Assembly (NCBI GenBank): GCA_029261055.1
Contig: JAJDCA010000066.1
Location: 157-64,156, forward strand
Direction of reading: 5' to 3'
Length of the DNA: 64,000 bases
Origin: Candidatus Omnitrophota bacterium
GTDB taxonomy: Bacteria; Omnitrophota; Gorgyraeia; Zapsychrales; Zapsychraceae
Program-made: the position numbers and the translations under genes
The notes under the pieces: model-generated
The model's database searches: none
Told to the model about the DNA's origin: nothing
The model's input: the letters and a program-made list of their open reading frames with translations, nothing else
Shown: positions 3,818 through 57,477 of the stretch, in pieces
Layout: each line of letters opens with the position of its first letter
Position numbering within the stretch: the first letter of the stretch is position 1

Positions 3818-3900
3818 TGAAGTCTCCCCGGGGCAAGCCTCGAGGAATTAAATCCGTTGGAGATTGGCTAAATAATTTGTTCAGCCAATCTCTTAATTAA
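3818..3900 (+). promoter_or_regulatory. conserved leader element (GGGGCAAGCCTCG core, downstream hairpin, then TAATTAAAT), copy A
   Basis: gaagtctccccggggcaagcctcgaggaattaaat, then hairpin gagattggc/gccaatctc (3860-3892), then ttaattaaat, RBS and ATG at 3920. Related copies at 51644-51723 and 57374-57462. Confidence 0.4.
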
Positions 3901-3919
3901 ATAATAAAGGAGAAAACTA

Positions 3920-4003
3920 ATGGGTGACAAAGGAAAGAAAGACAAAACAAAAAGCAATAAACAAAAACAAGATAAACAAAATAAAAAAGCAAACAAAAGC
4001 TAA
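3920..4003 (+). CDS. 27-aa lysine-rich peptide (MGDKGKKDKTKSNKQKQDKQNKKANKS)
   Basis: AAAGGAG RBS 6 nt upstream of the ATG. Preceded by leader copy A and followed by a perfect 48-bp palindrome. Below the 60-aa cutoff of the ORF track. Confidence 0.35.
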   Translation: MGDKGKKDKTKSNKQKQDKQNKKANKS

Positions 4004-4068: not shown

Positions 4069-4117
4069 CTATAAATTAAATATGGGTTGTCTACTAGTAG
4101 ACAACCCATATTTAATT
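4069..4117. terminator. perfect 24/24-bp inverted repeat (taaattaaatatgggttgtctact|agtagacaacccatatttaattta); candidate terminator or operator
   Basis: Exact self-complementarity read from the sequence, located downstream of the tiny K-rich ORF. Confidence 0.45.
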
Positions 4118-4168: not shown

Positions 4169-4315
4169 ATGCCCCCTAAAAAAACAAAAAAAAATGGTCC
4201 TGTAAAAAATTTTAAAGCAGGGAGAATGTGTAAAAAGTTCGGGTGTAAACAAAAACTGAGTATTTATAACTCAGAGGAATATTGTAATGTTCATCGAGGC
4301 GAAATCTTGAGATGA
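4169..4315 (+). CDS. 48-aa basic Cys/His small protein (MPPKKTKKNGPVKNFKAGRMCKKFGCKQKLSIYNSEEYCNVHRGEILR)
   Basis: ORF immediately upstream of the GT4 gene. C-x4-C...C-x2-H spacing suggests a small zinc-ribbon-like fold. Below the ORF-track cutoff. Confidence 0.35.
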   Translation: MPPKKTKKNGPVKNFKAGRMCKKFGCKQKLSIYNSEEYCNVHRGEILR

Positions 4316-5525: not shown

Positions 5526-7465
5526 GCAACGGATCATTTCTTTTAAATTTTGATTCGGATTATCAAATTCGGGATATTTATTTCCCTTTTATTGGTCAGG
5601 AAAATCATTCCAGTGGACGTCCTTTTATTTTTGGTGTCTGGGTAGACGGGCATTATTCGAAAATGGGGCCGGATTGGACAAAAGATTTAAGATATCATAA
5701 CAATAGTCTTGTAACAGATGTCTTTTTAAAAAATGAAGTTTTAGGGCTGGAGTTGCGATGTTCAGATGTAGTAGATATGGATTTGAATATATATATTAAG
5801 AAAATTGAAGTGATCAATCTCAAAGATGAAGATCGTCAAGTTCGACTTTTTTTTAGTCATGAATTTAATCTTTATGGTAATGGCATTGGAGGGACGGCTT
5901 ATTTTGATCCTCGAACGTGTTCGATTATTCACTACAAAGTCCATCGATATTTTTTGATCAGCTGTTGGGCGCATGATAAATGGGGTGTACAGCATTTTGC
6001 TTGTGGAAGAAGAGAAGCTTCAGGAGAATTGGAAACACTCAAAGAAGCAGAAAATGGAGAGCTTATTGGAGATGCCTGTGCATGGGGATCACCGCATTCT
6101 ACCATTGGTATTTGGTTGGACGTGCCTGCGAAGGGAACAACAGATGCTTATTATTGGATGGCAGCGGGTACGACGTATTCAGATGTTGCAAACCTTAATT
6201 TACAAGTTCATGAAAAAACACCAGAAAAGCTCATCAGTCGTTCATCAAAATATTGGAGAACTTGGGTTCATAAGGATTCATTACAGCTTGAAAGTTTGCC
6301 TGATTCCGTAACACATATTTTTAATCGAAGTTTGCTTATATTACGGACACAAATTGATAACGGTGGAGCTATTATAGCGGCCAATGATTCAGACATTATT
6401 CGTTTTGGAAAAGACACTTATTCGTATATGTGGGGGCGTGATGGTGCTTTTGTTGCCGCTGCCTTAGCAAAGGCCGGTTATTCGCATGCGTGTATGAAAT
6501 ATTTTGATTTTTGTGCGCGCGCTTTAACAGACGAAGGGTATTTATTTCAACATTACAATCCAGATGGTTCTCTTGCGAGTAATTGGCATTCTTGGTTGGT
6601 CGAGGGTAAAGAAGTTCTTCCTATTCAGGAAGACTCGACGGCTTTAACTCTTTGGGCCCTTTGGATTCACTACGAGAGTTTGAAAGATATAGAATTTATT
6701 AGGCCTCTTTACAATAGTCTCATTAGAAAAGCTGCAGATTTTTTAGTCAGTTATCTAGATCCTCAGACAATGTTGCCGTTACCTTCCTATGATTTATGGG
6801 AAGAGCGTTATGCACTGCATACTTATACCGTTGCTTCCGTGATTGCCGGATTAAGAGCGGCTTCGAATTTTGCAAAAATATTTGAAGATGCTTCTTTGGC
6901 GCAAGAGTATGACTCTGTTGCCGAAGAAATGACGGAAGGGATCAAGAAACATCTTTACCATGATGGCTTAAAGCGATATGCCCGTTCGGGCTCCAGAATA
7001 GAAGGAGGGTATAAGCTTAATGAAGTCATTGATATCAGTTTATTAAGCTTGGCAACTCTTGGAGTTTTGGATCCTAAAGATCCACGCATGGTTGAAACAG
7101 CTAACGCTGTACGTGAACAATTGTGGCTTAAAACTTCTGTTGAAGGTTGCGCCAGATATCAGGGGGATGTTTACCAACGTGCGGAAGATAGTCCCAAAGA
7201 TATTCCTGGGAATCCATGGTTTATTTCAACATTATGGCTGGCAGAATATTTTATTGATCAGGCAGAGAATCAAGAACAGCTTCAAGAAACCCTTCCTTAT
7301 CTTGAATGGTGCGGAAAAAATGCACTTCCTTCCGGCGTGCTTGCTGAACAGGTGCATCCTGTGAGTGGCGCACCTCTTTGTGTCTCACCTCTTACGTGGA
7401 GCCATTCGGCTTTTGTTTGGACTGTTCTAAGATACACCGAGAAACACAAAACACTTAAGAAATAG
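5504..7465 (+). CDS. glycoside hydrolase family 15 (glucoamylase / trehalase-like)
   Basis: 653 aa. N-terminal beta-sandwich domain plus (alpha/alpha)6 catalytic domain with WEERYALHTYTVASVIAGL and W..SHSAF motifs characteristic of GH15. Overlaps the GT4 stop by 22 nt, so the two are probably co-transcribed. Confidence 0.75.
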   Translation: MPKDIPVSNGSFLLNFDSDYQIRDIYFPFIGQENHSSGRPFIFGVWVDGHYSKMGPDWTKDLRYHNNSLVTDVFLKNEVLGLELRCSDVVDMDLNIYIKKIEVINLKDEDRQVRLFFSHEFNLYGNGIGGTAYFDPRTCSIIHYKVHRYFLISCWAHDKWGVQHFACGRREASGELETLKEAENGELIGDACAWGSPHSTIGIWLDVPAKGTTDAYYWMAAGTTYSDVANLNLQVHEKTPEKLISRSSKYWRTWVHKDSLQLESLPDSVTHIFNRSLLILRTQIDNGGAIIAANDSDIIRFGKDTYSYMWGRDGAFVAAALAKAGYSHACMKYFDFCARALTDEGYLFQHYNPDGSLASNWHSWLVEGKEVLPIQEDSTALTLWALWIHYESLKDIEFIRPLYNSLIRKAADFLVSYLDPQTMLPLPSYDLWEERYALHTYTVASVIAGLRAASNFAKIFEDASLAQEYDSVAEEMTEGIKKHLYHDGLKRYARSGSRIEGGYKLNEVIDISLLSLATLGVLDPKDPRMVETANAVREQLWLKTSVEGCARYQGDVYQRAEDSPKDIPGNPWFISTLWLAEYFIDQAENQEQLQETLPYLEWCGKNALPSGVLAEQVHPVSGAPLCVSPLTWSHSAFVWTVLRYTEKHKTLKK

Positions 7466-10122: not shown

Positions 10123-11463
10123 TTGAATCCCTACATCGCTAACACAAAAAACGACACAAAAGATATGCTGAAGGTCATTGGTGTAAATACCATCGATGAC
10201 CTTTTTGCCGATATACAACCTCACCAAAAGCCTAAGTCTTTTGATCTGCCAAACGGCCTATCTGAGTTTGAAGTCATCGAAAAAATTAAACGTATCGCCG
10301 AAAAAAATACGACCAACCTTATTTCGTTTTTAGGGGGAGGGTATTACGACCATTATGTGCCCGCCGCTGTAACAGCGCTCATTTCTCGAGGAGAATTTTC
10401 CACGGCGTATACGCCGTATCAGCCGGAATGTTCTCAAGGCACACTACAAGCCTTGTACGAATATCAAAGTGCTATTTGTACTTTAACTGAAATGGATGTG
10501 GCCAATGCATCACTCTACGACGGAGGGACAGCCCTTTACGAAGCGATTATGATGGCTATTCGTATTACACGACGAAAAAAAATTGTTATGGACGGCGGCG
10601 TAAGTCCTATCTATCGAAAAATTATCCATAGCTATACAAATAACTTAAATATTGAATTCAAAGAAACCCCTGTTGTGCATGGCCAAAGCGACCGCGATCA
10701 AATCAACAATCTCCTCGACAAAGACACAGCGGCCATTATTTTGCAAAACCCCAATTTCTTTGGTACCATTGATGATCATTCTGACATTATCCAAAAAGCA
10801 CATGAACAAGGTATATTAGTTATTGAAAGTGTTTATCCTGTTTCCCTGGGCATTGTCAAAACACCGGGCGAAATGGGGGTGGACATTGTCACCGGCGAAG
10901 GGCAAAGCCTGGGATTACCGCTTAATTTTGGCGGACCTTATCTTGGATTCATGTCCACGCGTAAAAAATATATCCGGAAAATGCCGGGACGTATTGTCGG
11001 TAAAACAATCGATAGCAGCGGAAAATCATGTTTTGTAAATACCTTGCAGGCACGGGAACAACATATCCGACGAGAAAAAGCGACCTCCAATATTTGCACG
11101 AATGTTTCTCTGTGTGCTGTACAATCTCTCATATATATGTCCTTATTGGGTAAACAAGGATTTGTTAATTTATCTCAACTCAATTTAGATAAAGCTGAAT
11201 TTATGCGCAAAACACTGGAAACGATAGAAGGGGTCGAGGTTAAACGCAGCTCCCCAACATTTAATGAATTCACCGTACGCCTTGCCAAAGAAGCGTCTGT
11301 CGTTATTAACGCTATGATTGAAAAAGGATTTGCCGCGGGCTTCCCGTTAGGACGCTATTATAAAGGAATGGAAAACTATATGATCGTGGCGGTGACCGAA
11401 AAACGAACCAAAGAAGAAATATTAAAATATGCGGAATGCTTGAAGGAAATTTTATCCCAATGA
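10123..11463 (+). CDS. gcvPA: glycine dehydrogenase (decarboxylating) subunit 1
   Basis: 446 aa. N-terminal half of a split P-protein (YTPYQPE, SQGTLQA motifs). Confidence 0.9.
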   Translation: MNPYIANTKNDTKDMLKVIGVNTIDDLFADIQPHQKPKSFDLPNGLSEFEVIEKIKRIAEKNTTNLISFLGGGYYDHYVPAAVTALISRGEFSTAYTPYQPECSQGTLQALYEYQSAICTLTEMDVANASLYDGGTALYEAIMMAIRITRRKKIVMDGGVSPIYRKIIHSYTNNLNIEFKETPVVHGQSDRDQINNLLDKDTAAIILQNPNFFGTIDDHSDIIQKAHEQGILVIESVYPVSLGIVKTPGEMGVDIVTGEGQSLGLPLNFGGPYLGFMSTRKKYIRKMPGRIVGKTIDSSGKSCFVNTLQAREQHIRREKATSNICTNVSLCAVQSLIYMSLLGKQGFVNLSQLNLDKAEFMRKTLETIEGVEVKRSSPTFNEFTVRLAKEASVVINAMIEKGFAAGFPLGRYYKGMENYMIVAVTEKRTKEEILKYAECLKEILSQ

Positions 11464-13989: not shown

Positions 13990-16900
13990 ATGCATATTTA
14001 CACAACAAAAAAACGATCAAATTTAATGTATCGAATCCTCTCAGCATTTATTGCAATAGTATTTTTAAGCACCACTATTGTGCCGCGAGGGTATACCCAA
14101 ACAGTGGTTTTACCAACAGCCACTATACTTAATTTACCTGTGCCGGGTACGATGGTAGGCATAACCGAAGGTTTTACACCTGCGATTATCAAAGGAATGA
14201 CGATTCATCCGGATAATCCTTTGGAATTTGATTTTATTGTGGGCCGCGGTGATAAAAATTTACAAGGAGATGATTTAAAAAAAGAAGGCATCAAAATAAT
14301 CAAATATTTTCTGGCTGCACTGACAACTCCTAAAGAGGACATGTGGGTAAACCTTTCCCCGTATGAAAAGAATCGTATTATTGCCGAAGGATTCGGACAA
14401 ACTGAAATGGGAGGAGATCTTTTATCTCAAGACTATCTTTTAAAACAGCTGACATCGTCATTAATGTATCCGGAAGATGAATTAGGCGGTGATTTTTGGG
14501 AAAAAGTGCATAAAAAAGCCTATGAACAGTTCGGAACAACCGATATTCCCATGAATACTTTTAATAAAATCTGGATTGTTCCAGAAAATGCCATGGTATA
14601 TGAGCATGAATCAAGCGCATTCGTAGTAGGCCGGCATTTAAAAGTGATGTTGGAGCAGGATTTTGTAGCTATGGATCATCAAAATTCTGGCATGCAAGGC
14701 ATAAAATTTGAGGTTACGACTGACAATATTGAACGAAAAAGCACGATAACTACGGAATTAATTCGTGAAATCCTTATCCCTGAGATTGAACGCGAGGTCA
14801 ATGAAGGTGAAAACTTTGCCAATTTACGTCAAATTTATAATTCTATGATTTTGGCTACATGGTATAAGCAAAACTTGAAAGAAAGTTTATTAGGACAAGT
14901 ATATATTGATAAAAATAAAATATTAGGCGTCGATGTGGAAGATAAAGATATCAAACATAAAATTTACAATCAATATATCCAGGCATTCAAAAAGGGCGTT
15001 TATAACTATATTAAGGAGGATTATGATTCTGTAACACATCAGGTCATTCCACGAAAATATTTTTCCGGAGGAACTTTATGGGTAAACGAAATTTCAGAAG
15101 TGGATAATTTAGAGGGCATTAACCTTAAACCTAAAATGATTCCTAATAAAACAGATGCTTCAATATTAACAAGTATTGTAGATGCAGGAGATGGTGCGGA
15201 TACGATTTATATTGAAGAAGTGATGAATCAATATGATGGCTCAATGTTAACCGTTCAGAGTGAGCTGGTTAGATTGAGAAATGATTTACCTTTAAATTTT
15301 TCTGGTAATTCGGATGAAATCATGGAAATTAAGAACTGGCCAAAGGTGGAACAGACAGTGAAAAACATCTCTGATGCTACCAAACAACTAATTCTTTTAT
15401 CAACAGTAAAAAATAACCTTTTTCGAGAATCAGTTCAAAAAGAAGTAGGTTTTATTTATGCCATTGCTTATTTCAGACAGCTTCTTCCGAATGATAAAAA
15501 GAAAGTTATAGAGGATTTTAATACATTGGGCCATAAGAATACTGCTGCGTGGTTAATGGAGAATAACAATTTGCATCTTGATGAATTAAAAGCCAAAATT
15601 CAGGACAAATTTGAAATTAATCTTAATCAAGAAACGGTAGAGTATATCAAAATGCATGATGAAACGGTGCGTCGATCAAGGGGGTTACGCTTAGCGGCAG
15701 ATTCTTTGAAAATATCTACCAGTGATCTTGATGTGATTTTCAAAAATCAAAGTTTGCTTGATGTTATTTTGGGATTACGCAAAGGAGCTGTTGTTGAAAT
15801 CCGACAACCTTTAAACAATTTAGAAAAAGTGCTACGACGGCTAAGATTGGCTGAAGGAGAGGCTATTCAATTTGTTCATCTTGGAAAAAATCAATATTAC
15901 GTCTATGAAGAACATCAGCTGAAACGGTTGGCGCAGGACAATGATTTAAATTATGGATTACACAGGAGTGGACTAAACCATTTGATCCAATTGGATATGG
16001 CAAAAAAACAAGGTATATTTTTTGAAGAAGCAAATAAAACAATTAATACAGATGCCCAAAAGAATATACATAGAATAAGCAGTTCCATCACTCTTTCAGA
16101 TACAAATAGAACTATGTATTTTGACGAAAAAGAAAAATTTTGGCGTGCTGATAAAACAGCCTCCCAGATTTTTGAAATTGAAAGAGTGGGAGCAGAACGA
16201 TCATATATTGCAACTATTCAAAGGGCAAAAGGATTTAAAAATGTTTTAGAATCCCAACTTGAAAATTTTTTAATATTTAATGTACAAACCCCAATCACCG
16301 TTATTGATGATTCTAACGAAACTGAACTTGAAATTAATATAAAGACAGTTAAAGAGTTTCAAAAAAAATATCAAATAGAAATTAAACATATAACAAAAAA
16401 AGAATGGGATGAAGAGTATGGATATTATGCAAAATATTTAAAGAAAACTTGGGAACAACAGCTAAATCAAGAAGTTTTACCTAACACTATTAAAGAATTT
16501 CTTTTAGAGACTGAAATTTTGCAAAAAAATATAATTAATGATGAAAAAATAGTCGAAGTCCTGCGTAGTCCAGAATTTTATCATACGTCCGGATTTCGAA
16601 ACAGACAATTTCTGATGGCTGTAGGGGAACCGATTATCCATGGATGGGATGACGATGCCCCTGCACATGTTTACGCGGTGACCGATAAAAAACGCGATCA
16701 ACTTCGCGAAGATGCCTTAAATGACAAAAAACCAATTATGCAGAACATGTTTCAAAAAGTTGGAAAAATGATTAACACAACCATTAAAAGTGAAAAAGCG
16801 TTCTATAAAGAACTCGCTAAGAACGATAATTATGACAACCCTAAAATCAAAGAGATTCTTGACAACTATTTTGGTTATGACCCCCAAGATGATCATAAAG

Positions 16901-18765
16901 GCTTAATTCCTCAAGCAGCAGAAGAAATAATTACATTGGAAAACAAAATGGATGGCATTAATCCTTATTCTGTCCAGAGGTATTCTCCTTTTATGCGAAA
17001 ATTCATTCCAAAACAAGCTCTTAGGATGGGAGACAATTATTCCCATAAACCTAGGATAAGTGATGATAAAGAAAATACATGTTGTATCATTATGCCGGCT
17101 AATCACCTGGGGCATTCCAGACGTGTTGGGCAAAGAATAGGGGATACTAATTTCTTCCTTGGGCAGGTTCCTTATAGGGGATTACTTAATACGCCTACAA
17201 ATAAAAATGAATCAAATGATTTAAAAGATCGCACTACCCATTTTCTGGGGCATGATTTTAATAATGACATCGATACGCAGGCCGGCAAACATTTGGAAGC
17301 TTATATTAATTCAGATGATCATCATATGAAACACATACAGCATACACATCAATCTGTTCTTTTGGTTGAGGGAGCTTTTGGTTTTGCTTCACTTCTTGGG
17401 TATCCTGTTTTTAATCGTAATTCAATGTTTGTGGGCGATTTTCCTCTGCCATCTTTGGGTGGACCGCTGCGTATTGAAGAACCCAAGATGTATCGATGGG
17501 TCGTCGGCCCATTGTTACTTAACACGGTAGCAGCTGCTAATGATAATATTGCAGGCGGACAAAAGCGTCATTTAGAAAATCGATTATATCGCAATTCTTA
17601 CCAAGACCTTACCGAAGTTGTGGGAGGGAACATTGCGGGTGATTTTTACGAAGCGGCCAAAGAGAAATATTACAAAATACTTCCAGAGAAATACAAAAAA
17701 GATTTATGGGGAGATTTATATAATCGACTTATCGTTTTAGCGAATGTTTTTCTTGAAGCTGGGACTGAAGTTAATTTAACAACCAAGCATAAAGAAAAGG
17801 CCTTAGAAGAACGTCAATTGAGAGCCCAATCCATTTCACGATTAGCATTAAAACGAAGCAAGAAAGTTATTAAATTAGAGAAAAATCCAGATGAAAATTT
17901 AAAACAGGAGATAAAAGATATTGATTTAATGATTCTCGACTATGCCGATCATTTTGGTTATTACGCTCCACAAAATACTAAAAATAAAAATTATAATCCG
18001 ATAAATCCTGAAGAAGATTATTTTTATAAAATCAAGGTTGATGGAAATTATTTAAAATGGCAAGCGGTATATCCTGATATGGAAGTCGCTGATCAGAATG
18101 GAGTTTCTTCAGTCAAGAGCAGTGAATGGAAAAATTTGCAAAAAAAATCAGGTGAAACCCGACTAAGTAATTGGGTAAAAGGAGAAACTATTTCTTTAGA
18201 AAATGGCCGGTCCATTCTTTTAGACGAACTGCCAGATAACGATATTGAAATAATTGTACCGGGCTTACGCTCCGACCTTGAAAAAGAATATTTAAAAGAA
18301 GTTCAACAAATTATTATAAAACAGCTTAAAGCCGATGGTAATCAAATGATTATCTGGCCAGATATGGTTGCAGCCGCTAAGCAAAGAAAAAAAGATTCCG
18401 CCATGGCAACAAAAAATGTAAAAAATAACCTTACTTTTAATACAAAACAGACTATAAATGAAGTCGGTGGTATCGATCTTAATCCTGATTTATTAAATTT
18501 ACAAATCAAACGTGATGGAAATGGCGTGCCGTTACCAGTAGCGATGCAGCCTATTGAAAATATGCATATTGAAGGGTTTTTCCCTATTATTATCAATATT
18601 ACACCTGTCAATCTTCCACTTCTTGGTTTTGGAGACACTCTTCCGAAAGAAAACTATCCCAAACCATCACCTGAACTCAGCTTTTGGGAAGAACAAGAGA
18701 GAAAAGCTTTTCTGAGAAGTAAATTAGGTGATAGAAATACACAACTAATACAAGAAAACACCTAA
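13990..18765 (+). CDS. giant secreted protein (1591 aa) with a conserved N-terminal domain of unknown function; paralog of 53880-57287
   Basis: Uninterrupted 4.8-kb ORF with a signal-peptide-like N-terminus (MYRILSAFIAIVFLSTTIV). The first ~350 aa are ~55-60% identical to the N-terminus of the 1135-aa protein at 53880 (LNLPVPGTMV...IKG...DPL.FDF; WVNLSPYE.NRII...GQTEMG.DLL.QDYLLKQLT.SLMYPE.ELG; IPRKYFSGG). The rest is unique and carries no domain I recognise. Confidence 0.7.
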   Translation: MHIYTTKKRSNLMYRILSAFIAIVFLSTTIVPRGYTQTVVLPTATILNLPVPGTMVGITEGFTPAIIKGMTIHPDNPLEFDFIVGRGDKNLQGDDLKKEGIKIIKYFLAALTTPKEDMWVNLSPYEKNRIIAEGFGQTEMGGDLLSQDYLLKQLTSSLMYPEDELGGDFWEKVHKKAYEQFGTTDIPMNTFNKIWIVPENAMVYEHESSAFVVGRHLKVMLEQDFVAMDHQNSGMQGIKFEVTTDNIERKSTITTELIREILIPEIEREVNEGENFANLRQIYNSMILATWYKQNLKESLLGQVYIDKNKILGVDVEDKDIKHKIYNQYIQAFKKGVYNYIKEDYDSVTHQVIPRKYFSGGTLWVNEISEVDNLEGINLKPKMIPNKTDASILTSIVDAGDGADTIYIEEVMNQYDGSMLTVQSELVRLRNDLPLNFSGNSDEIMEIKNWPKVEQTVKNISDATKQLILLSTVKNNLFRESVQKEVGFIYAIAYFRQLLPNDKKKVIEDFNTLGHKNTAAWLMENNNLHLDELKAKIQDKFEINLNQETVEYIKMHDETVRRSRGLRLAADSLKISTSDLDVIFKNQSLLDVILGLRKGAVVEIRQPLNNLEKVLRRLRLAEGEAIQFVHLGKNQYYVYEEHQLKRLAQDNDLNYGLHRSGLNHLIQLDMAKKQGIFFEEANKTINTDAQKNIHRISSSITLSDTNRTMYFDEKEKFWRADKTASQIFEIERVGAERSYIATIQRAKGFKNVLESQLENFLIFNVQTPITVIDDSNETELEINIKTVKEFQKKYQIEIKHITKKEWDEEYGYYAKYLKKTWEQQLNQEVLPNTIKEFLLETEILQKNIINDEKIVEVLRSPEFYHTSGFRNRQFLMAVGEPIIHGWDDDAPAHVYAVTDKKRDQLREDALNDKKPIMQNMFQKVGKMINTTIKSEKAFYKELAKNDNYDNPKIKEILDNYFGYDPQDDHKGLIPQAAEEIITLENKMDGINPYSVQRYSPFMRKFIPKQALRMGDNYSHKPRISDDKENTCCIIMPANHLGHSRRVGQRIGDTNFFLGQVPYRGLLNTPTNKNESNDLKDRTTHFLGHDFNNDIDTQAGKHLEAYINSDDHHMKHIQHTHQSVLLVEGAFGFASLLGYPVFNRNSMFVGDFPLPSLGGPLRIEEPKMYRWVVGPLLLNTVAAANDNIAGGQKRHLENRLYRNSYQDLTEVVGGNIAGDFYEAAKEKYYKILPEKYKKDLWGDLYNRLIVLANVFLEAGTEVNLTTKHKEKALEERQLRAQSISRLALKRSKKVIKLEKNPDENLKQEIKDIDLMILDYADHFGYYAPQNTKNKNYNPINPEEDYFYKIKVDGNYLKWQAVYPDMEVADQNGVSSVKSSEWKNLQKKSGETRLSNWVKGETISLENGRSILLDELPDNDIEIIVPGLRSDLEKEYLKEVQQIIIKQLKADGNQMIIWPDMVAAAKQRKKDSAMATKNVKNNLTFNTKQTINEVGGIDLNPDLLNLQIKRDGNGVPLPVAMQPIENMHIEGFFPIIINITPVNLPLLGFGDTLPKENYPKPSPELSFWEEQERKAFLRSKLGDRNTQLIQENT

Positions 18766-50856: not shown

Positions 50857-51552
50857 ATGATCTCCAATTCCAAAACAGCACCATTTATTCTTGAAACAAT
50901 TGACCAACGCTTACAGTTACGTAAATCTGATGAACCGAAACTCGGGTCTGTCTGCGTCGATTTTGTCAAAGGCTCAAATGCTCATCGTCGTAAATTTGGT
51001 GGAGGGAGGAGGCAGGCTATTGCCAGGGCTGTCGGCCTTAAAAAAGGAGCAACACCCTCGATCTTAGATGCCACGGCCGGACTAGGGCGCGATGCGTTTG
51101 TACTGGCCTCACTCGGTTGTCGTGTTCATATGCTGGAGCGTTCACCCATCATAACGGATCTGCTTGCCGATGGATTACAGCGCGCAAAAAATGATGCTCA
51201 AATCGGTACCTGGATTTCAAAACGCCTTACACTAGACATCAAAGACAGCACCAAAGGATTATCATCTTTACCTTTTAAACCCGATGTTGTTTATTTAGAT
51301 CCGATGTACCCGGAAAAGAAAAAATCTGCTCTTGTAAAAAAAGAAATGCGCATGCTTCAATTGCTTCTCGGCAATGATCTTGATTCTGACAACCTACTAG
51401 AGATAGCTTTAAATATCGCACAACAACGTGTTGTTGTTAAACGTTCGGCACATGCCAGTCATCTCGCCGATAAAACCCCCAATGCCACAATTAAAACACA
51501 AAAAAATCGTTTTGATATTTATCTAATACCAAACCAAAATAGAAAAGATTGA
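50857..51552 (+). CDS. rsmJ: 16S rRNA (guanine1516-N2)-methyltransferase
   Basis: 231 aa. Close match to E. coli RsmJ/YhiQ over its length ([10 protein letters not shown]...DFV.G...[60 protein letters not shown]). Confidence 0.9.
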
Positions 51553-51643
51553 CGAATGAATAAACAAAGAGTATAGTGCAAACAATTAGGAATTGAAAAA
51601 AATAATTTACACATATTTAATAAAAAACCTCGTCGATTCAACT

Positions 51644-51723
51644 GAATCTCCTCGGGGCAAGCCTCGGGAAATTAGACCCTTTTGGAATTTCTTTAAAACT
51701 AGAAATTCCTAATTAAATTAAAC
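51644..51723 (+). promoter_or_regulatory. conserved leader element, copy B, within a ~320-nt 5' leader
   Basis: gaatctcctcggggcaagcctcgggaaattag, then hairpin ggaatttct/agaaattcc (51684-51709), then taattaaattaaac. Confidence 0.4.
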
Positions 51724-51874
51724 GATGATTTTATTTCTTTCCAATTGCTTGAGTAAAAGTTTTTACTTTAACCATCCTGAAATTTTAATTAACCATTTTC
51801 GTGTTCAACCTACTTTTAAACATTATCAAAATTCCTACACGCTTAGCTTTATTTAAAAGGGAGGGGAAAAATCA

Positions 51875-52105
51875 ATGATGGATATAGGGAAAATTTCAAA
51901 AATACGGCAAGACAAACACTGTGGCATGATAACATTATCTGATGGTCGAGAGGCTACGTTTAATAATCGTTGCCTTTATAAGAATGCTGATTTTAATACG
52001 TTATACGAAGGCCAAGAGGTTGAATTTTATATTCAAAGAAGCCATAAAGGTTATCTAGCTGCTTCAATTAGACCGCTCCAACCAGCAAGTACTGTAAAAG
52101 TTTAA
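51875..52105 (+). CDS. degenerate cold-shock-domain-like small protein
   Basis: 76 aa. Spacing resembles CspA (G.I..I...KG.G.IT..DG...F ... L.EGQ.V.F.I), but the aromatic residues of RNP1 are replaced (KHCGMI). Confidence 0.4.
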   Translation: MMDIGKISKIRQDKHCGMITLSDGREATFNNRCLYKNADFNTLYEGQEVEFYIQRSHKGYLAASIRPLQPASTVKV

Positions 52106-52131: not shown

Positions 52132-52947
52132 ATGAAAAAAATTATACATATCAGTGATCTACATATCGGATACGAAGATTTTTCTGAGCGCTTTTCAAAA
52201 ATTATATCGAATTTAAAAACACAATTGGGCGAACAGGCACGTGATTATGTTCTGGTCATTACCGGTGATTTAATCGATAATGCACACAACCAGGATGATT
52301 TCTTTGTTATTCAAAAAAAATTAGAGGAATTAAAACAATCAGGCTTTGAAGAAATCCTTGTAGTGCCGGGAAATCATGATTACGGTACCGGGTCCCGCGG
52401 GGATAAAAAATTCGTTAAAGTTTTTCACGATATCTTTTATCAAGATCAAAAAACCTTTCCCCGAAAAAATATTATCGAAAATGTTGCCTTCCTTGGGCTG
52501 GACTCAATGGCCGAAGAACTCAATTGGTACGATGAAATTTGGGCCGAAGGAGAATTGGGCAACGAACAATTGCAACGTTTAGAAGCGAACTTACACGAAG
52601 ATGAAGTACGTTCTTGTGCCAAACGTGTGGTTTACCTTCATCACCATCCATTTGATTTTCGGCCACTGCACCAGCTCAAAGACTCCAGGAAATTAAAAAA
52701 AGTCCTGTGTGACGCTATTGCTGAAGGCATCAGTATTGATGCGCTTCTTTACGGGCACAATCACGAAGGCAAATCGCATAATGGTCAGTGGGACATTCCT
52801 CGGTGTTACGATGCCGGCAGCGCCACACTAAAACCTCGCCCATCGTATATTGATTGGGTTCCCGGTTTTCAAACCAAGGCCTCCGTACGTGTTATCGATC
52901 TGGAGCAACATGATGCTACACTCGACAAAGAATTGACTCTCTTATAA
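52132..52947 (+). CDS. calcineurin-like metallophosphoesterase
   Basis: 271 aa. Motifs IHISDLHIG, GDLIDN, VPGNHDYG, LHHHP, GHNHEG. Confidence 0.75.
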   Translation: MKKIIHISDLHIGYEDFSERFSKIISNLKTQLGEQARDYVLVITGDLIDNAHNQDDFFVIQKKLEELKQSGFEEILVVPGNHDYGTGSRGDKKFVKVFHDIFYQDQKTFPRKNIIENVAFLGLDSMAEELNWYDEIWAEGELGNEQLQRLEANLHEDEVRSCAKRVVYLHHHPFDFRPLHQLKDSRKLKKVLCDAIAEGISIDALLYGHNHEGKSHNGQWDIPRCYDAGSATLKPRPSYIDWVPGFQTKASVRVIDLEQHDATLDKELTLL

Positions 52948-53879: not shown

Positions 53880-56800
53880 ATGAAATTACAATTTTCATTA
53901 AAATCTCAAATTATTAGTAACTTTGTCATTTTGACATTTGTATCTAGCTTGATTCTCCCTCCATCCAAGGTACAAGCCCAGACAGCACCTGCATTAACAA
54001 AAAGCGGATTAAATCTTCCTGTTCCCGGGACAATGGTACCATTGAGTGAATCATTTTTTCCTGTGGTGATAAAAGGAATAAAGGTATTTCCAGAGGATCC
54101 GCTAAAATTTGATTTTATTATGAATATGCCTGAGTCTGAATTAGAAGGCGCTGATTTAGAAAATAAAGCATTTAAACTTGTGAAATACTTTTTAGCTTCA
54201 CTCACCGTTCCTGAGAAAGATTTATGGGTTAACCTCTCTCCTTACGAAGAAAATCGTATCATTCCTGAGCAACTTGGACAAACAGAAATGGGTCGTGATT
54301 TGTTGGCACAGGATTATTTGCTAAAACAATTGACGGCATCTTTGATGTATCCGGAGGAGGAACTAGGAGAAGAATTTTGGGATCGAATATATAAAGAATC
54401 TTATGAAAAATTCGGAACAACGGATGTTCCGATAAATACATTTCATAAAGTTTGGATTATTCCTGATAAAGCGGTTGTCCATGAACAAGGAACAACTGCT
54501 TTTGTAACGGAAAGTTATTTAAAGGTAATGTTAGAAAAAGATTATTTAGCTTCCCAAAAAGGCACAAAAACCGCCCCTTCATCACAAGAAAAAGATGATT
54601 TAGAATCAAAAATTATTAAAGAGGTTATCATTCCTGCCATTGAAGAAGAAGTTAACTATGGAAAGAATTTCATTCTATTACGGCAAATTTATCATTCTTT
54701 GATTCTTGCTAAATGGTTTAAAACACGCATGAAGAGTACTTTATTAGGGAAAAATTATGCAGACAAAAGTAAAATCGTTGGCATTGAATTGGAAGATAAA
54801 GACATTTCAGAAAAAATTTATCAACAGTATGTCGAATCTTTTAAAGTAGGGGTATATGATCTAATTCGGGAAGAATATGATCCCATGACAGAGTCTATTA
54901 TTCCGAGAAAATATTTTTCCGGAGGGCTTGTTTTGGAAACACCACTTGTTATTCAAAATATCAATGGTGTAAGTATGGCCATGCTTGTGAATGATTCATT
55001 TAGTAAAGTAGCTTCCTTTACTGTAAGAATTAATCCTATTTCCTCTGGTGATAAATCAATGAGTTCGGCGGCAGATGATCTTCTTGTAAAAATAAAGCGT
55101 CGGGTTAAAAGCGAGAGCTTTACTATTATTGATGAGCCTCTAGAAGAGCTAAAAGGTCTTATTGGAAATGACAGTAAAGCTGCGAGTCAATACAAAGAAG
55201 CCGTTATTACTTTTGCCGATGGGCTACTTGAAAAGATAAAAGATCTTTCTAATCGCGAAAAATTTAATATTATTGACGGATATCTGGAACAACTAAAAGA
55301 ACTTAGTGAGGAACACACATATGTTGTCGATCAATTCAAAGAAGCCGTTATTGCTTTTGCAGATGGCTTAGTTAAAAAGATAAAAAGACTTTCTGATGAA
55401 AAGAAATTTAATATTATTGACGGATATCTGAACCAACTAAAAGAGCTTAGTGAGGAATATACATATGTTGTCGATCAATATGAAACAGCAAATTTTTATT
55501 ATCAAGAGTCTTTGCCGAGGGATAATTTATCCGGAGTTGATGAAGAAATTTATAAAAGGACTACCGAAATTAGAAAAAATCTAAATAGGGGCAATTTTAA
55601 AAAAGTGCAGGAACTTCATATAGAGAACATAGACACTGTGAAAAAACTTTCCAATCCAGAAAAAGAAGAAAAATATGGTAGACTTATCGTTAAAACATTT
55701 CTAGAAGGTCAGATAGATTCGATGAACAGAGAACAAAATTATGGAGATTTCTTTACATTAGTACAAAATGAGAGGTTTGAAGAAAATCTAAAGAATTTTG
55801 GGCATTTGCAATCAATCACGACACATAAAACTCTACAAGAAATGTATACGGATATGCTGAGAAAAAAAGCATTATTTATGAAAAACAAATTTAAGGCTCT
55901 TCCTGATGAAGAAAAATTTAGTGTTAATATAAAGAAAGAGGGCATCAGCTTTAATGATAATATTGCTGCCATAGTAGCGATTTTTTCTATAAATCAAAAG
56001 GATACAGTGATAGGGAAACATTTGATAGAAATGTTTGAGACCTACTCTGCGAGTTTATTAAGGGTATTAGAAAATGAATGGGGAAAAAATAAAAAACCCT
56101 CTTTTAAATTGATTTATACATCAGAAAAAATCCTGGAAGCTATGAAAGAAATTACAAATATTGTCCAGCTGCATGACGGACTCACGGAAAATCTTAAAAC
56201 AGCAACTTCAACATACCAGACGGCTTTAGAAAACGCCGGAATATCAGATTCCATAAGAAAGAAATTGTTAAATTTTGCAATATACTTTTTGCAAACAATT
56301 TACAACGCCAGAAGTTATGATGCAAATAAATTATTTTCTTCTTTGAAGGAAGATCCCGAGCTTCTTCAATACCCCCATTTGGAAAACGTTTATGCTGAAG
56401 GATTCTCATATTTATTTTCTGTATTCAAAGAAAATAGATTATTCTCGAGTTGGGAGAGCCTGTCTTCCGGTTGGAATATTCACCTTTTTGATTATTTGAA
56501 AACATTTTTACTGGAGAGAAATGGTGAATTTACGTTAATCAAAAAAGTTTATGAGACAAATCTAGGAGAATATGCGGTTAATTTTTCTCGAGCAATTCAG
56601 AATCAACTTGATAAAGATACAGATTGGGATGGAAGAATGACTACTCCTATTTCTGCGGTCTTAAACTCAGAACCAGTAAATATTCCAAGCGCATCAAACA
56701 TACTCTTTAAATTTTGGGAGTTCTTAGTGGATTATCCTGTTGAAAGTGTAGAGGATGTTTATGTAGAAACATTAGAAAATATTTTTAATGCAATAGAAAG

Positions 56801-57287
56801 GAATTATTCTTCAAATATTTTTGAATCGGTAAGAGAAGATTTTATGAAAACTATTCGTAGAAGATTAAATGATGCCGATCCGAATACATTTGTAAAAATA
56901 AGAGAATTTCTTGCTCATCAAGAAACTAATCCTCATAAAAATCGTCAAATAGACGCAGTTGAAAACACGCCTATAGCTTTCCCATCATTAAACCCATGGG
57001 GGCAGATTCCACGTAGAATAGTTATTTCTAATAATAGTGATGGGAGTTTTACAATTATGTTCTCTGATCTGAGTATGCTTAATAATAAAACAATATCGAC
57101 TAAAGGGGGGATTGATTTGGTTGATACAAAGATAGATATTCGGCAAGATAATGCGTTTGAACGGTTTAATAACGAAAATGTATTATTAGATTCTGCCTCA
57201 TTTGTAGGGGGGTCCTTTGATATTAATGGTGTAACCATGATTCCTAATGTTTCAGCTTATCTTAATCCTAACCCACTATCGTATTAA
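53880..57287 (+). CDS. giant secreted protein (1135 aa); paralog of 13990-18765 through the shared N-terminal ~350-aa domain
   Basis: Signal-peptide-like N-terminus ending ...VQAQT. The N-terminal domain aligns along its length with giant protein 1. The central region has an internal ~60-aa duplication (..KESFTIIDEPLEELKGL.. / ..REKFNIIDGYLEQLKELSEEHTYVVDQFKEAVIAFADGL.. x2). Confidence 0.7.
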   Translation: MKLQFSLKSQIISNFVILTFVSSLILPPSKVQAQTAPALTKSGLNLPVPGTMVPLSESFFPVVIKGIKVFPEDPLKFDFIMNMPESELEGADLENKAFKLVKYFLASLTVPEKDLWVNLSPYEENRIIPEQLGQTEMGRDLLAQDYLLKQLTASLMYPEEELGEEFWDRIYKESYEKFGTTDVPINTFHKVWIIPDKAVVHEQGTTAFVTESYLKVMLEKDYLASQKGTKTAPSSQEKDDLESKIIKEVIIPAIEEEVNYGKNFILLRQIYHSLILAKWFKTRMKSTLLGKNYADKSKIVGIELEDKDISEKIYQQYVESFKVGVYDLIREEYDPMTESIIPRKYFSGGLVLETPLVIQNINGVSMAMLVNDSFSKVASFTVRINPISSGDKSMSSAADDLLVKIKRRVKSESFTIIDEPLEELKGLIGNDSKAASQYKEAVITFADGLLEKIKDLSNREKFNIIDGYLEQLKELSEEHTYVVDQFKEAVIAFADGLVKKIKRLSDEKKFNIIDGYLNQLKELSEEYTYVVDQYETANFYYQESLPRDNLSGVDEEIYKRTTEIRKNLNRGNFKKVQELHIENIDTVKKLSNPEKEEKYGRLIVKTFLEGQIDSMNREQNYGDFFTLVQNERFEENLKNFGHLQSITTHKTLQEMYTDMLRKKALFMKNKFKALPDEEKFSVNIKKEGISFNDNIAAIVAIFSINQKDTVIGKHLIEMFETYSASLLRVLENEWGKNKKPSFKLIYTSEKILEAMKEITNIVQLHDGLTENLKTATSTYQTALENAGISDSIRKKLLNFAIYFLQTIYNARSYDANKLFSSLKEDPELLQYPHLENVYAEGFSYLFSVFKENRLFSSWESLSSGWNIHLFDYLKTFLLERNGEFTLIKKVYETNLGEYAVNFSRAIQNQLDKDTDWDGRMTTPISAVLNSEPVNIPSASNILFKFWEFLVDYPVESVEDVYVETLENIFNAIERNYSSNIFESVREDFMKTIRRRLNDADPNTFVKIREFLAHQETNPHKNRQIDAVENTPIAFPSLNPWGQIPRRIVISNNSDGSFTIMFSDLSMLNNKTISTKGGIDLVDTKIDIRQDNAFERFNNENVLLDSASFVGGSFDINGVTMIPNVSAYLNPNPLSY

Positions 57288-57373
57288 CAAAACTAATAGA
57301 ATACAACAAAAAACATAATGATTGCATTTTGATGAAAAATGCATTATACTTAATAATGAATCAAGGGTATGAA

Positions 57374-57462
57374 CAGGGCAAGCCCTGGACCCTATCAGTC
57401 GCAGCGAACTGCAGGGTATTAAACCCATTTAGAATTTCGTTAAAGCATCGAAATTCCTAAAT
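57374..57462 (+). promoter_or_regulatory. conserved leader element, copy C (more divergent), upstream of vapB
   Basis: cagggcaagccctgg..., then hairpin gaatttcg/cgaaattc (57432-57456), then ctaaatgaaaggagg. Confidence 0.35.
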
Positions 57463-57477
57463 GAAAGGAGGTTGACT

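Follow-up and report, generated by a model that had tools for sequence, protein, structure and literature searches.

A structured intergenic element, possibly a REP-like dispersed repeat, in an Omnitrophota contig and in many Bacteroidota

Three copies of a structured element were found upstream of small genes in a 64-kb stretch of Omnitrophota DNA (the whole stretch analyzed, referred to here as the window). The family to which they belong is intergenic, occurs in either orientation, lies preferentially just after stop codons, and is present in many Bacteroidota. We put at about even the chance that the three modules represent an as yet undescribed structured repeat, REP-like and dispersed through intergenic DNA, which came to lie upstream of the small genes by accident. 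Because the neighboring genes are unrelated and the copies stand in either orientation, the element is probably a repeat of this kind rather than a switch by which the three small genes are controlled.

The modules lie on the plus strand at the places given in the initial annotation, as borne out by the sequence and by a covariance model. They are mutually homologous, and a MAFFT alignment of the three spans about 90 nt. The exact 9-mer GGGCAAGCC occurs three times in the window against an expectation of 0.33, a count that was reached in 0 of 100 shuffles. A covariance model of the core (43 positions), built from 36 distinct copies with the three window sites among the training sequences, matched exactly three sites in the 64 kb with filters off (42.7, 38.9, and 35.2 bits; E values, 1e-9 to 2e-7), and the next-best match in the window scored 11 bits (E > 1). 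The match in copy 1 covers positions 3819 to 3861 (38.9 bits; E value, 1.6e-8) and that in copy 2 positions 51643 to 51685 (42.7 bits), while the upstream hairpin of copy 3, hp1, gives a partial match at positions 57374 to 57388. The copies are spaced 48 kb and 6 kb apart, and no further copy was found in an extra 4 kb beyond the window. Their parts are listed in Table 1.

Table 1. Positions of the three element copies and their parts in the window
Feature	Coordinates	Strand	Evidence
Copy 1, short (one-hairpin) form	3818..3902	+	sequence, covariance model
Copy 1, core hairpin hpB CGGGG-CAAG-CCTCG, one G.U pair	3829..3842	+	sequence, fold, model
Copy 1, small hairpin P2 GGA-ATTAAA-TCC	3844..3855	+	fold
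Copy 1, variable hairpin hpC GGAGATTGGCT ... AGCCAATCTC	3859..3892	+	fold
Copy 1, 3' end motif TAATTAAAT	3894..3902	+	sequence; family consensus G/U-AUUAAA
Copy 2, short form	51635..51718	+	sequence, fold, model
Copy 2, possible upstream hairpin GATTC-AACT-GAATC	51635-51648	+	fold
Copy 2, core hairpin hpB CGGGG-CAAG-CCTCG	51653..51666	+	sequence, fold, model
Copy 2, variable hairpin hpC GGAATTTCT-ttaaaact-AGAAATTCC	51684..51709	+	fold
Copy 2, 3' end motif TAATTAAAT	51710..51718	+	sequence
Copy 3, full (two-hairpin) form	57359..57466	+	sequence, alignment, model
Copy 3, layout AATCAA-GGGTATGAA-[hp1]-GACCC-linker-[hpB]-GGGTATTAAACCC-[hpC]-TAAATGAAA	57359..57466	+	
Copy 3, extra upstream hairpin hp1 CAGGG-CAAG-CCCTG, contains GGGCAAGCC	57374..57387	+	sequence, alignment, model
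Copy 3, core hairpin hpB GCAG-CGAA-CTGC, homologue of the core of copies 1 and 2	57401..57412	+	alignment, model
Copy 3, small hairpin P2 GGG-TATTAAA-CCC	57414..57426	+	sequence, fold
Copy 3, variable hairpin hpC GAATTTCG-ttaaagcat-CGAAATTC	57432..57456	+	sequence, fold

The unit is 55 to 130 nt long and consists, in this order, of a UGAAC-like 5' box, hpB, P2, the optional hpC, and a (G/U)AUUAAA end. The GC-rich hpB is nearly invariant (consensus, CGGGG-CAAG-CCYCG) and has a 4-nt loop; the 14-mer that forms it in copy 1 recurs in copy 2, and 16 short-form copies from other genomes have it too. The cc(t/c)cgggg sequences that had been described as half-sites are indeed there, but they are the two arms of this hairpin. 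After hpB comes G or A and then GG(A/U)AUUAAA(C)CC, which is able to close as P2. hpC is free in sequence and length, with 11 bp in copy 1 and 8 to 9 bp in copies 2 and 3, where the two hairpins are alike and one compensatory change (T-A to G-C) separates them. On the 3' side of hpC stands TAATTAAAT in copies 1 and 2 and TAAATGAAA in copy 3, the unit end in the window copies being (C)UAAUUAAAU; AT-rich hairpins downstream of the core, followed by a (c)taa(t)taaat-like end, are present in all three copies as first noted. The full form adds a second CAAG-loop hairpin and a GGUAU(U/G)AAC box, both upstream. Copy 3, which at the RNA level starts with AAUCAA-GGGUAUGAA, had been assigned the same GC-rich core as the other two; it does contain GGGCAAGCC, but in the extra hp1, and the counterpart of the core of copies 1 and 2 is GCAG-CGAA-CTGC.

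The hpB helix of copy 3 is retained relative to copies 1 and 2 via two compensatory pair changes. Counted across 42 distinct sequences, 99% of the hpB cells are paired, and in two of the five pairs both partners change (6 cells), a result matched by 0 of 500 shuffles, although this covariation is modest evidence because the search pattern fixed most of hpB. By inspection, pairing is also kept through compensatory changes in the hp1, hpA (Flavobacteria), and hpC hairpins of additional copies. As read tentatively from the alignment, the arms of P2 co-vary as well (GGGG/CCCC, GAG/CUC, AGG/CCU, and GAAGA/UUUUC), with about five exceptional copies. The GGGG run has two mutually exclusive partners, CCUC on its 5' side and CCCC on its 3' side. 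At the G.U pair of the short-form core, T is never restored to C in a set for which the search pattern admitted only C or T at that position, and on the opposite strand this pair would become an A.C mismatch. Between the two strands, hpC has 10 against 19 G.U pairs with similar energies, and its equal stability on both strands suits an orientation-free element.

The motif was found elsewhere as well. The pattern CGGGGCAAGCCYCGNNNAATTA was scanned over 185,579 species, one genome each, in a collection from which the source genome of the window is absent. It gave 38 loci, of which about 36 have the whole motif context (5' box, P2, optional hpC, and GAUUAAA end), where about 9 chance matches were expected by our own estimate. 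This set carries the ascertainment bias of an exact search pattern, it was drawn as small (8-kb) samples per genome, and some of the MAG bins may be contaminated. Nearly all carriers are Bacteroidota (Bacteroidales, Marinilabiliales, and Flavobacteriaceae), and the Marinilabiliales include the isolates Saccharicrinis aurantiacus and Geofilum rhodophaeum. The other carriers are several unclassified MAGs, an Omnitrophota MAG (L031), and a MAG labeled Gammaproteobacteria (L027); together with the source of the window, the Omnitrophota genomes with the element number at least two.

The Bacteroidales have the full form, AAUAAAUGGUAUUAAACC-[CCAGGG-CAAG-CCCUGG]-ACCC-N6-[CCGGGG-CAAG-CCCCGG]-GGAAUUAAACC-[GC-rich hpC]-GGAUUAAAA, which aligns with copy 3 end to end. 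The short form with the G.U pair is that of the Marinilabiliales, the Flavobacteriia, the Omnitrophota MAG L031, and window copies 1 and 2, and the L031 copy shares 32 consecutive identical nucleotides in the core with that of Geofilum (L029). Second, diverged copies were detected with the covariance model within 8 kb at five loci. The diverged copy L005b has the hpB CGAGG-CAAA-CCUCG, and the diverged copy L030b has the hairpin CCCGCUG-CAAG-CAGCGGG; L024 has a tandem neighbor copy, and L032 and L033 contain single-hairpin derivatives. The MAG JBBRAY01 contains at least 6 copies, five of them near-identical over about 125 nt, and in four of these five hp1 is enlarged by the same 24-nt insertion, which is specific to this genome. 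The JBBRAY01 copies have sharp ends (AATAAAATGG...GGATTAAA), unrelated flanks, and unique sequence past the 3' boundary. Near-identity, sharp ends, and unrelated flanks together are the signature of a repeat multiplied within a genome.

Plasmids and phages gave zero element matches by blastn. The single match in viral contigs (IMG/VR) was inside a coding region and was rejected as chance, as were all 15 matches of a metagenome scan with the lineage-specific pattern TCTCCYCGGGGCAAGCCTCG, which fell in GC-rich coding DNA. In a search of the window and 18 foreign loci against Rfam 15, tRNAs alone reached the gathering threshold; a permissive search (E ≤ 10) of the three window copies and one full-form copy returned noise only, and the 600-nt gap upstream of copy 1 had no match at E ≤ 1. 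A literature search for short core strings retrieved no paper with the element, and papers on REP/RAYT systems and on Flavobacteria transcriptomes held no description matching it. The element therefore appears to be uncatalogued.

Genes around the foreign copies were called as greedy ORFs of at least 90 aa, and the following counts are approximations to that extent. The flanking genes are oriented ++ in 9 cases, -- in 8, +- in 7, and -+ in 3, and the downstream gene shares the strand of the element in 15 cases and is encoded on the other strand in 19. For thirteen foreign copies a stop codon is no more than 40 nt away (8 of an upstream co-directional gene and 5 of a downstream convergent gene), and for four a start codon is that close. 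When their N-terminal ORF translations were read by eye, the neighbors looked unrelated to one another (hemL-, aroC-, obg-, and murQ-like genes, transporters, an ABC ATPase, an OmpA-like protein, and a response regulator), and the ORF translations of several opposite-strand neighbors resemble ordinary genes. The L031 copy is antisense to both of its neighboring genes. Long-ORF calls traverse the element in L031 (positions ~6170 to 6215, minus strand) and in L018 (positions 1960 to 2313), giving spurious N-terminal extensions (...IPRGLPRGSS... and ...RGKPREIK...), and automated annotation of carrier genomes may hold such artefacts.

Mobility of the copies is suggested by their identity within a genome and by their scattered contexts. 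As REP-like repeats, the copies would multiply and move within genomes via an enzyme whose recognition site is the invariant hairpin together with the AUUAAA boxes. Transcribed copies would act only as stable stem-loops in neighboring mRNAs, by analogy with REPs in 3'-end protection or punctuation, and in the window the copies would have landed downstream of promoter-like sites and ahead of the three small genes' start codons. A mobilizing enzyme was found neither in the 8-kb samples of the carrier genomes nor in the window, and no empty site or presence/absence polymorphism of the element was seen. Further points against the repeat reading are the very high identity of the core across phyla, which would be more usual for a functional RNA or a site bound by protein than for a repeat that drifts passively, the G.U pair that favors one strand, and the direction of the three window copies, each of which faces a small gene just downstream. 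For the same organism, two Logan contigs (L001 and L064, run SRR15505515) start at positions 51688 and 57438, inside hpC of copies 2 and 3, which weakly suggests assembly trouble at a repeat or hairpin.

A cross-phylum core, conserved single-stranded boxes, and the G.U pair fit a sequence-specific partner of one strand (RNA or single-stranded DNA) better than they fit a passive palindrome. We regard it as possible, though only tentatively, that the copies represent an undescribed cross-phylum class of structured element in which the invariant CGGGGCAAGCCYCG hairpin and the AUUAAA boxes are the site of a dedicated protein, which would belong either to a new HUH-like single-strand mobilization system without the hallmarks of REP/RAYT or to the RNA-binding factors, marking mRNA ends in Bacteroidota and Omnitrophota. 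The fit to a one-strand partner also sets the order in which we rank small RNAs, cis-acting regulators, and double-stranded DNA sites below.

It is unlikely, in our judgment, that the copies are independently transcribed small RNAs or guide-RNA-like scaffolds, in which the hairpins would serve as a scaffold for protein binding and the unique sequence beside them as the variable portion. Such RNAs would explain an orientation independent of the neighbors, a sharp 3' boundary followed by unique sequence, single-stranded boxes (CAAG loop, AAUUAAA, and GAUUAAA) conserved across phyla, and a core G.U pair that favors one strand. Omega-RNA-like guide RNAs with a scaffold and a 3' guide are known in Bacteroidota (PMC13472631); the guide RNAs of that dCas12f study are locus-specific and are not the window element. 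Among 37 copies, however, neither a Bacteroidota -7 box (TAnnTTTG) at a fixed upstream distance nor a T-run at a fixed position was found, so there is no sign of a separate transcription unit with its own promoter and a terminator after the element. No TnpB/Cas12f-like or other constant neighbor gene was found at the foreign loci, many copies overlap or abut the stop codons of their neighbors, and the stability of hpC is the same on both strands, all of which speaks against transcribed scaffolds.

We give still less credence to a cis-acting structured 5' UTR (riboswitch, protein-binding leader, or thermometer) that would co-regulate the Lys-rich mini-protein, the CSD-like protein, and VapBC. 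This reading is close to one offered in the initial annotation, of which the structure and its conservation are supported and the dedicated switch for three small genes is not. The case for it comes from the window, where each copy faces a nearby downstream gene, and from the strong conservation of the core across phyla. Copy 1 ends 17 nt before the ATG of a 27-aa Lys-rich ORF (positions 3920 to 4003), copy 2 ends 157 nt before the CSD gene (positions 51875 to 52105), and copy 3 abuts the SD GGAGG (positions 57467 to 57471) of the RHH antitoxin gene, whose ATG is 13 nt away. Promoter-like sites were found at positions 51549 to 51577 (10/12), about 60 nt upstream of copy 2, and at positions 57329 to 57357, upstream of copy 3. 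Since they lie downstream of such sites and before ATGs, the copies are probably carried in 5' UTRs, and they may have a local side effect on the stability or translation of the small genes. In the MFE fold of copy 1, UCUCC on the 5' side of the core pairs with the SD GGAGA; in copies 1 and 3, the CU-rich 3' arm of hpC (UCUCU and UUCCU) is complementary to the SD, an arrangement that copy 2 lacks. The mutually exclusive pairings of the GGGG run would also suit a switch.

The wider family weighs against a dedicated leader, as 19 of 34 foreign copies have their downstream gene on the opposite strand, the neighbors are unrelated housekeeping genes, stop codons are favored and abutted, and the L031 copy is antisense to both sides. 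The distance of copy 2 from its gene argues in the same direction. Co-orientation within the window carries little information, because nearly all ORFs of at least 80 aa are on the plus strand; the G+C content of the window is 37 to 42%, and its AT skew is positive throughout. Very large proteins are also encoded in the window (1591 aa, positions 13990 to 18765, and 1135 aa, positions 53880 to 57287).

The Lys-rich gene has homologues without the element, which likewise speaks against a dedicated leader. The 27-aa ORF (MGDKGKKDKTKSNKQKQDKQNKKANKS, with a strong SD) belongs to a conserved mini-protein family in Omnitrophota, and the related contig L061 contains paralogues at positions 10924 to 11007 and 1890 to 1970 (MGDKGKKDKDKRGQQKQSKKDKKANKK and ...KKSKK; MGDKGKKDK...), with the element absent upstream of both. 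Upstream of one of these paralogues, positions 10898 to 10910 of L061 read AATTGGTATGAAG, matching 12 of 13 bases of the full-form 5' end (AATTGGTATGAAC, L034) without the hairpins; this match may have arisen by chance, or it may mark a target site or what is left of a former copy. TGGTATKAA was considered as a common promoter box and rejected, as it is not enriched in the window. About 75 nt past the Lys-rich ORF of the window is a near-perfect palindrome (positions ~4078 to 4113; AAATATGGGTTGTCTAC-TAG-TAGACAACCCATATTT, about 17 bp per arm) without a T-run, which may be a bidirectional terminator-like hairpin. Positions 4169 to 4315 encode a 48-aa Lys-/Cys-rich ORF (MPPKKTKKNG...CKKFGCKQKL...CNVH) with no Pfam match, whose product may be a small zinc-binding protein.

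The CSD-domain protein has a Pfam CSD match (E value, 3e-8), and its gene has an unusually long leader of about 300 nt. In an index of 5.8 billion proteins, no homologue of it was found but itself. A candidate 43-aa ORF (MILFLSNCLSKSFYF...; positions 51725 to 51856) begins 7 nt past copy 2, without an obvious SD. The homologues of the metallophosphoesterase encoded at positions 52132 to 52947 are, by source, from Candidatus Omnitrophica/Omnitrophota, the best non-self match having 68% identity. Eight loci (114 kb) from related Omnitrophota contain zero copies of the element. In these relatives neither rsmJ nor the CSD gene has a counterpart among the genes that precede the metallophosphoesterase, and because the neighborhoods are not syntenic they provide no empty-site comparison for copy 2.

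A double-stranded DNA site, namely, an alternative-sigma promoter or an operator for a dimeric regulator acting on CCYCGGGG/CCYCGRGG half-sites, is very improbable, although a shared promoter or operator had been put forward from the sequence of the window. The core is an imperfect palindrome upstream of the window genes, and A/T-rich boxes flanking it are repeated three times in full forms, as might be expected of such a site. In copy 3, L005b, and L030b, however, the sequences of the arms are altered and stay complementary. A core that keeps its pairing without its sequence bears the signature of a folded single strand and argues against a double-stranded operator. By inspection, neither ECF (GGAAC...CGTC) nor sigma-54 (TGGCAC-N5-TTGC) boxes are matched, and the element contains no promoter-like hexamer pair. 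Family copies also stand between convergent genes and on stop codons, and the mixed orientation and unrelated neighbors are at odds with a shared promoter. A leader peptide or other coding function was rejected by inspection, as the frames through the core (RGKPRGIK and M..PGQAPGN*) are not kept, the short forms have no start codon, and stops interrupt the frame in L014 and L036.

It follows for annotation that the three small genes of the window should not be described as a regulon under one common riboswitch, thermometer, or operator. The element of 55 to 130 nt combines a core almost identical between Bacteroidota and Omnitrophota with REP-like behavior, in the absence of a REP tag or transposase. 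If a cognate protein exists, the two would form a new pair of repeat and enzyme in phyla whose intergenic repeats have barely been studied, and finding it would explain recurrent assembly breaks and spurious small ORFs ('...PRGKPRGIK...' frames through the core).

REP/BIME sequences of Proteobacteria are mobilized by RAYT (TnpA_REP) transposases of the Y1 HUH type. The element resembles them in being a short, GC-rich, imperfect palindrome that is strictly intergenic, multicopy, in either orientation, and often past stop codons, and in its near-identity within a genome, its composite units with variable linkers, and its stem-loops in mRNA. Extragenic location, multiple copies, and both orientations were all observed (three copies in 64 kb, all copies intergenic, and orientation about 50:50). 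In contrast to REPs, the element has no GTAG/GTGG (or CGTC) foot tetranucleotide, the bases 5' of the core being CCU, UUC, or CCC in 40 copies; its core is conserved across phyla, whereas REPs are species specific; and it has extra conserved single-stranded boxes (AAUUAAA, GAUUAAA, and CAAG loop). A link to RAYT was rejected, since the single RAYT-like gene seen (L007) adjoins another repeat, and phmmer found no homologue of its product in the window or in the other loci searched, which were sampled at 8 kb per genome. This gene encodes a RAYT-like Y1 transposase (positions 258 to 815 of L007; HuH SHVH, YIHTNP) and is flanked by a different hairpin repeat, CCACTAGT...ACTAGCGG, which occurs twice at positions 1 to 250 (CCGCTAGTA...TACTAGTGG and CCACTAGTT...AACTAGCGG). 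By analogy, the latter is probably the gene's own atypical REP; a Bacteroidetes RAYT subclass, 2.6, has been described with an atypical REP (PMC6006769).

Like MITE-like repeats (Correia/NEMIS, ERIC, RUP, and BOX), the element falls within 50 to 150 nt, is dispersed between genes, and would be co-transcribed with its neighbors. It is modular, as is BOX with its variable number of modules, and repeats of this type can alter the expression of adjacent genes. Unlike them, it has no terminal inverted repeats or variable target-site duplication and is found across phyla. In the same-genome alignment, it is bounded by AATAAAATGG and GGATTAAA(A), A/T boxes (AATAAA... and ...ATTAAA) that stand in direct orientation and are constant between copies.

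With 5' UTR regulators (cspA-type leaders, ROSE/fourU thermometers, and riboswitches), the element shares a conserved multihairpin fold with compensatory changes, a likely 5' UTR position of the window copies, one of them before a cold-shock-domain gene, and possible SD/anti-SD alternatives in copies 1 and 3. It differs from them in that the wider family has no constant gene association or orientation bias (15 same versus 19 opposite strand, without recurrent co-oriented genes) and no Rfam match. None of the conserved hairpins includes the SD; in copies 1 and 3 the SD might pair over a long range or in an alternative fold, and such pairings are absent from copy 2. No terminator-like site was found at the three window copies, nor a fixed T-run in the 37 copies, as would be seen in intrinsic terminators. 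By inspection, the window copies have no GTTRRRY/RYYYAAC pair of integron attC sites; with spacings of 48 kb and 6 kb in the window and foreign copies beside housekeeping genes, they do not form an attC cassette array.

The ends of IS200/IS605 elements and PATEs share with the element two similar subterminal hairpins on one strand and the absence of duplications and inverted repeats. Sharp ends beside short conserved A/T motifs, which could be target or cleavage sites, and a strand-specific G.T pair are further points of likeness. The element differs in that no TnpA or TnpB gene was found at any locus examined, in that its hairpins are only about 10 to 25 nt apart, and in that its short forms have a single conserved hairpin. 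Overall, the element is compatible with a derivative of IS200/IS605-type ends.
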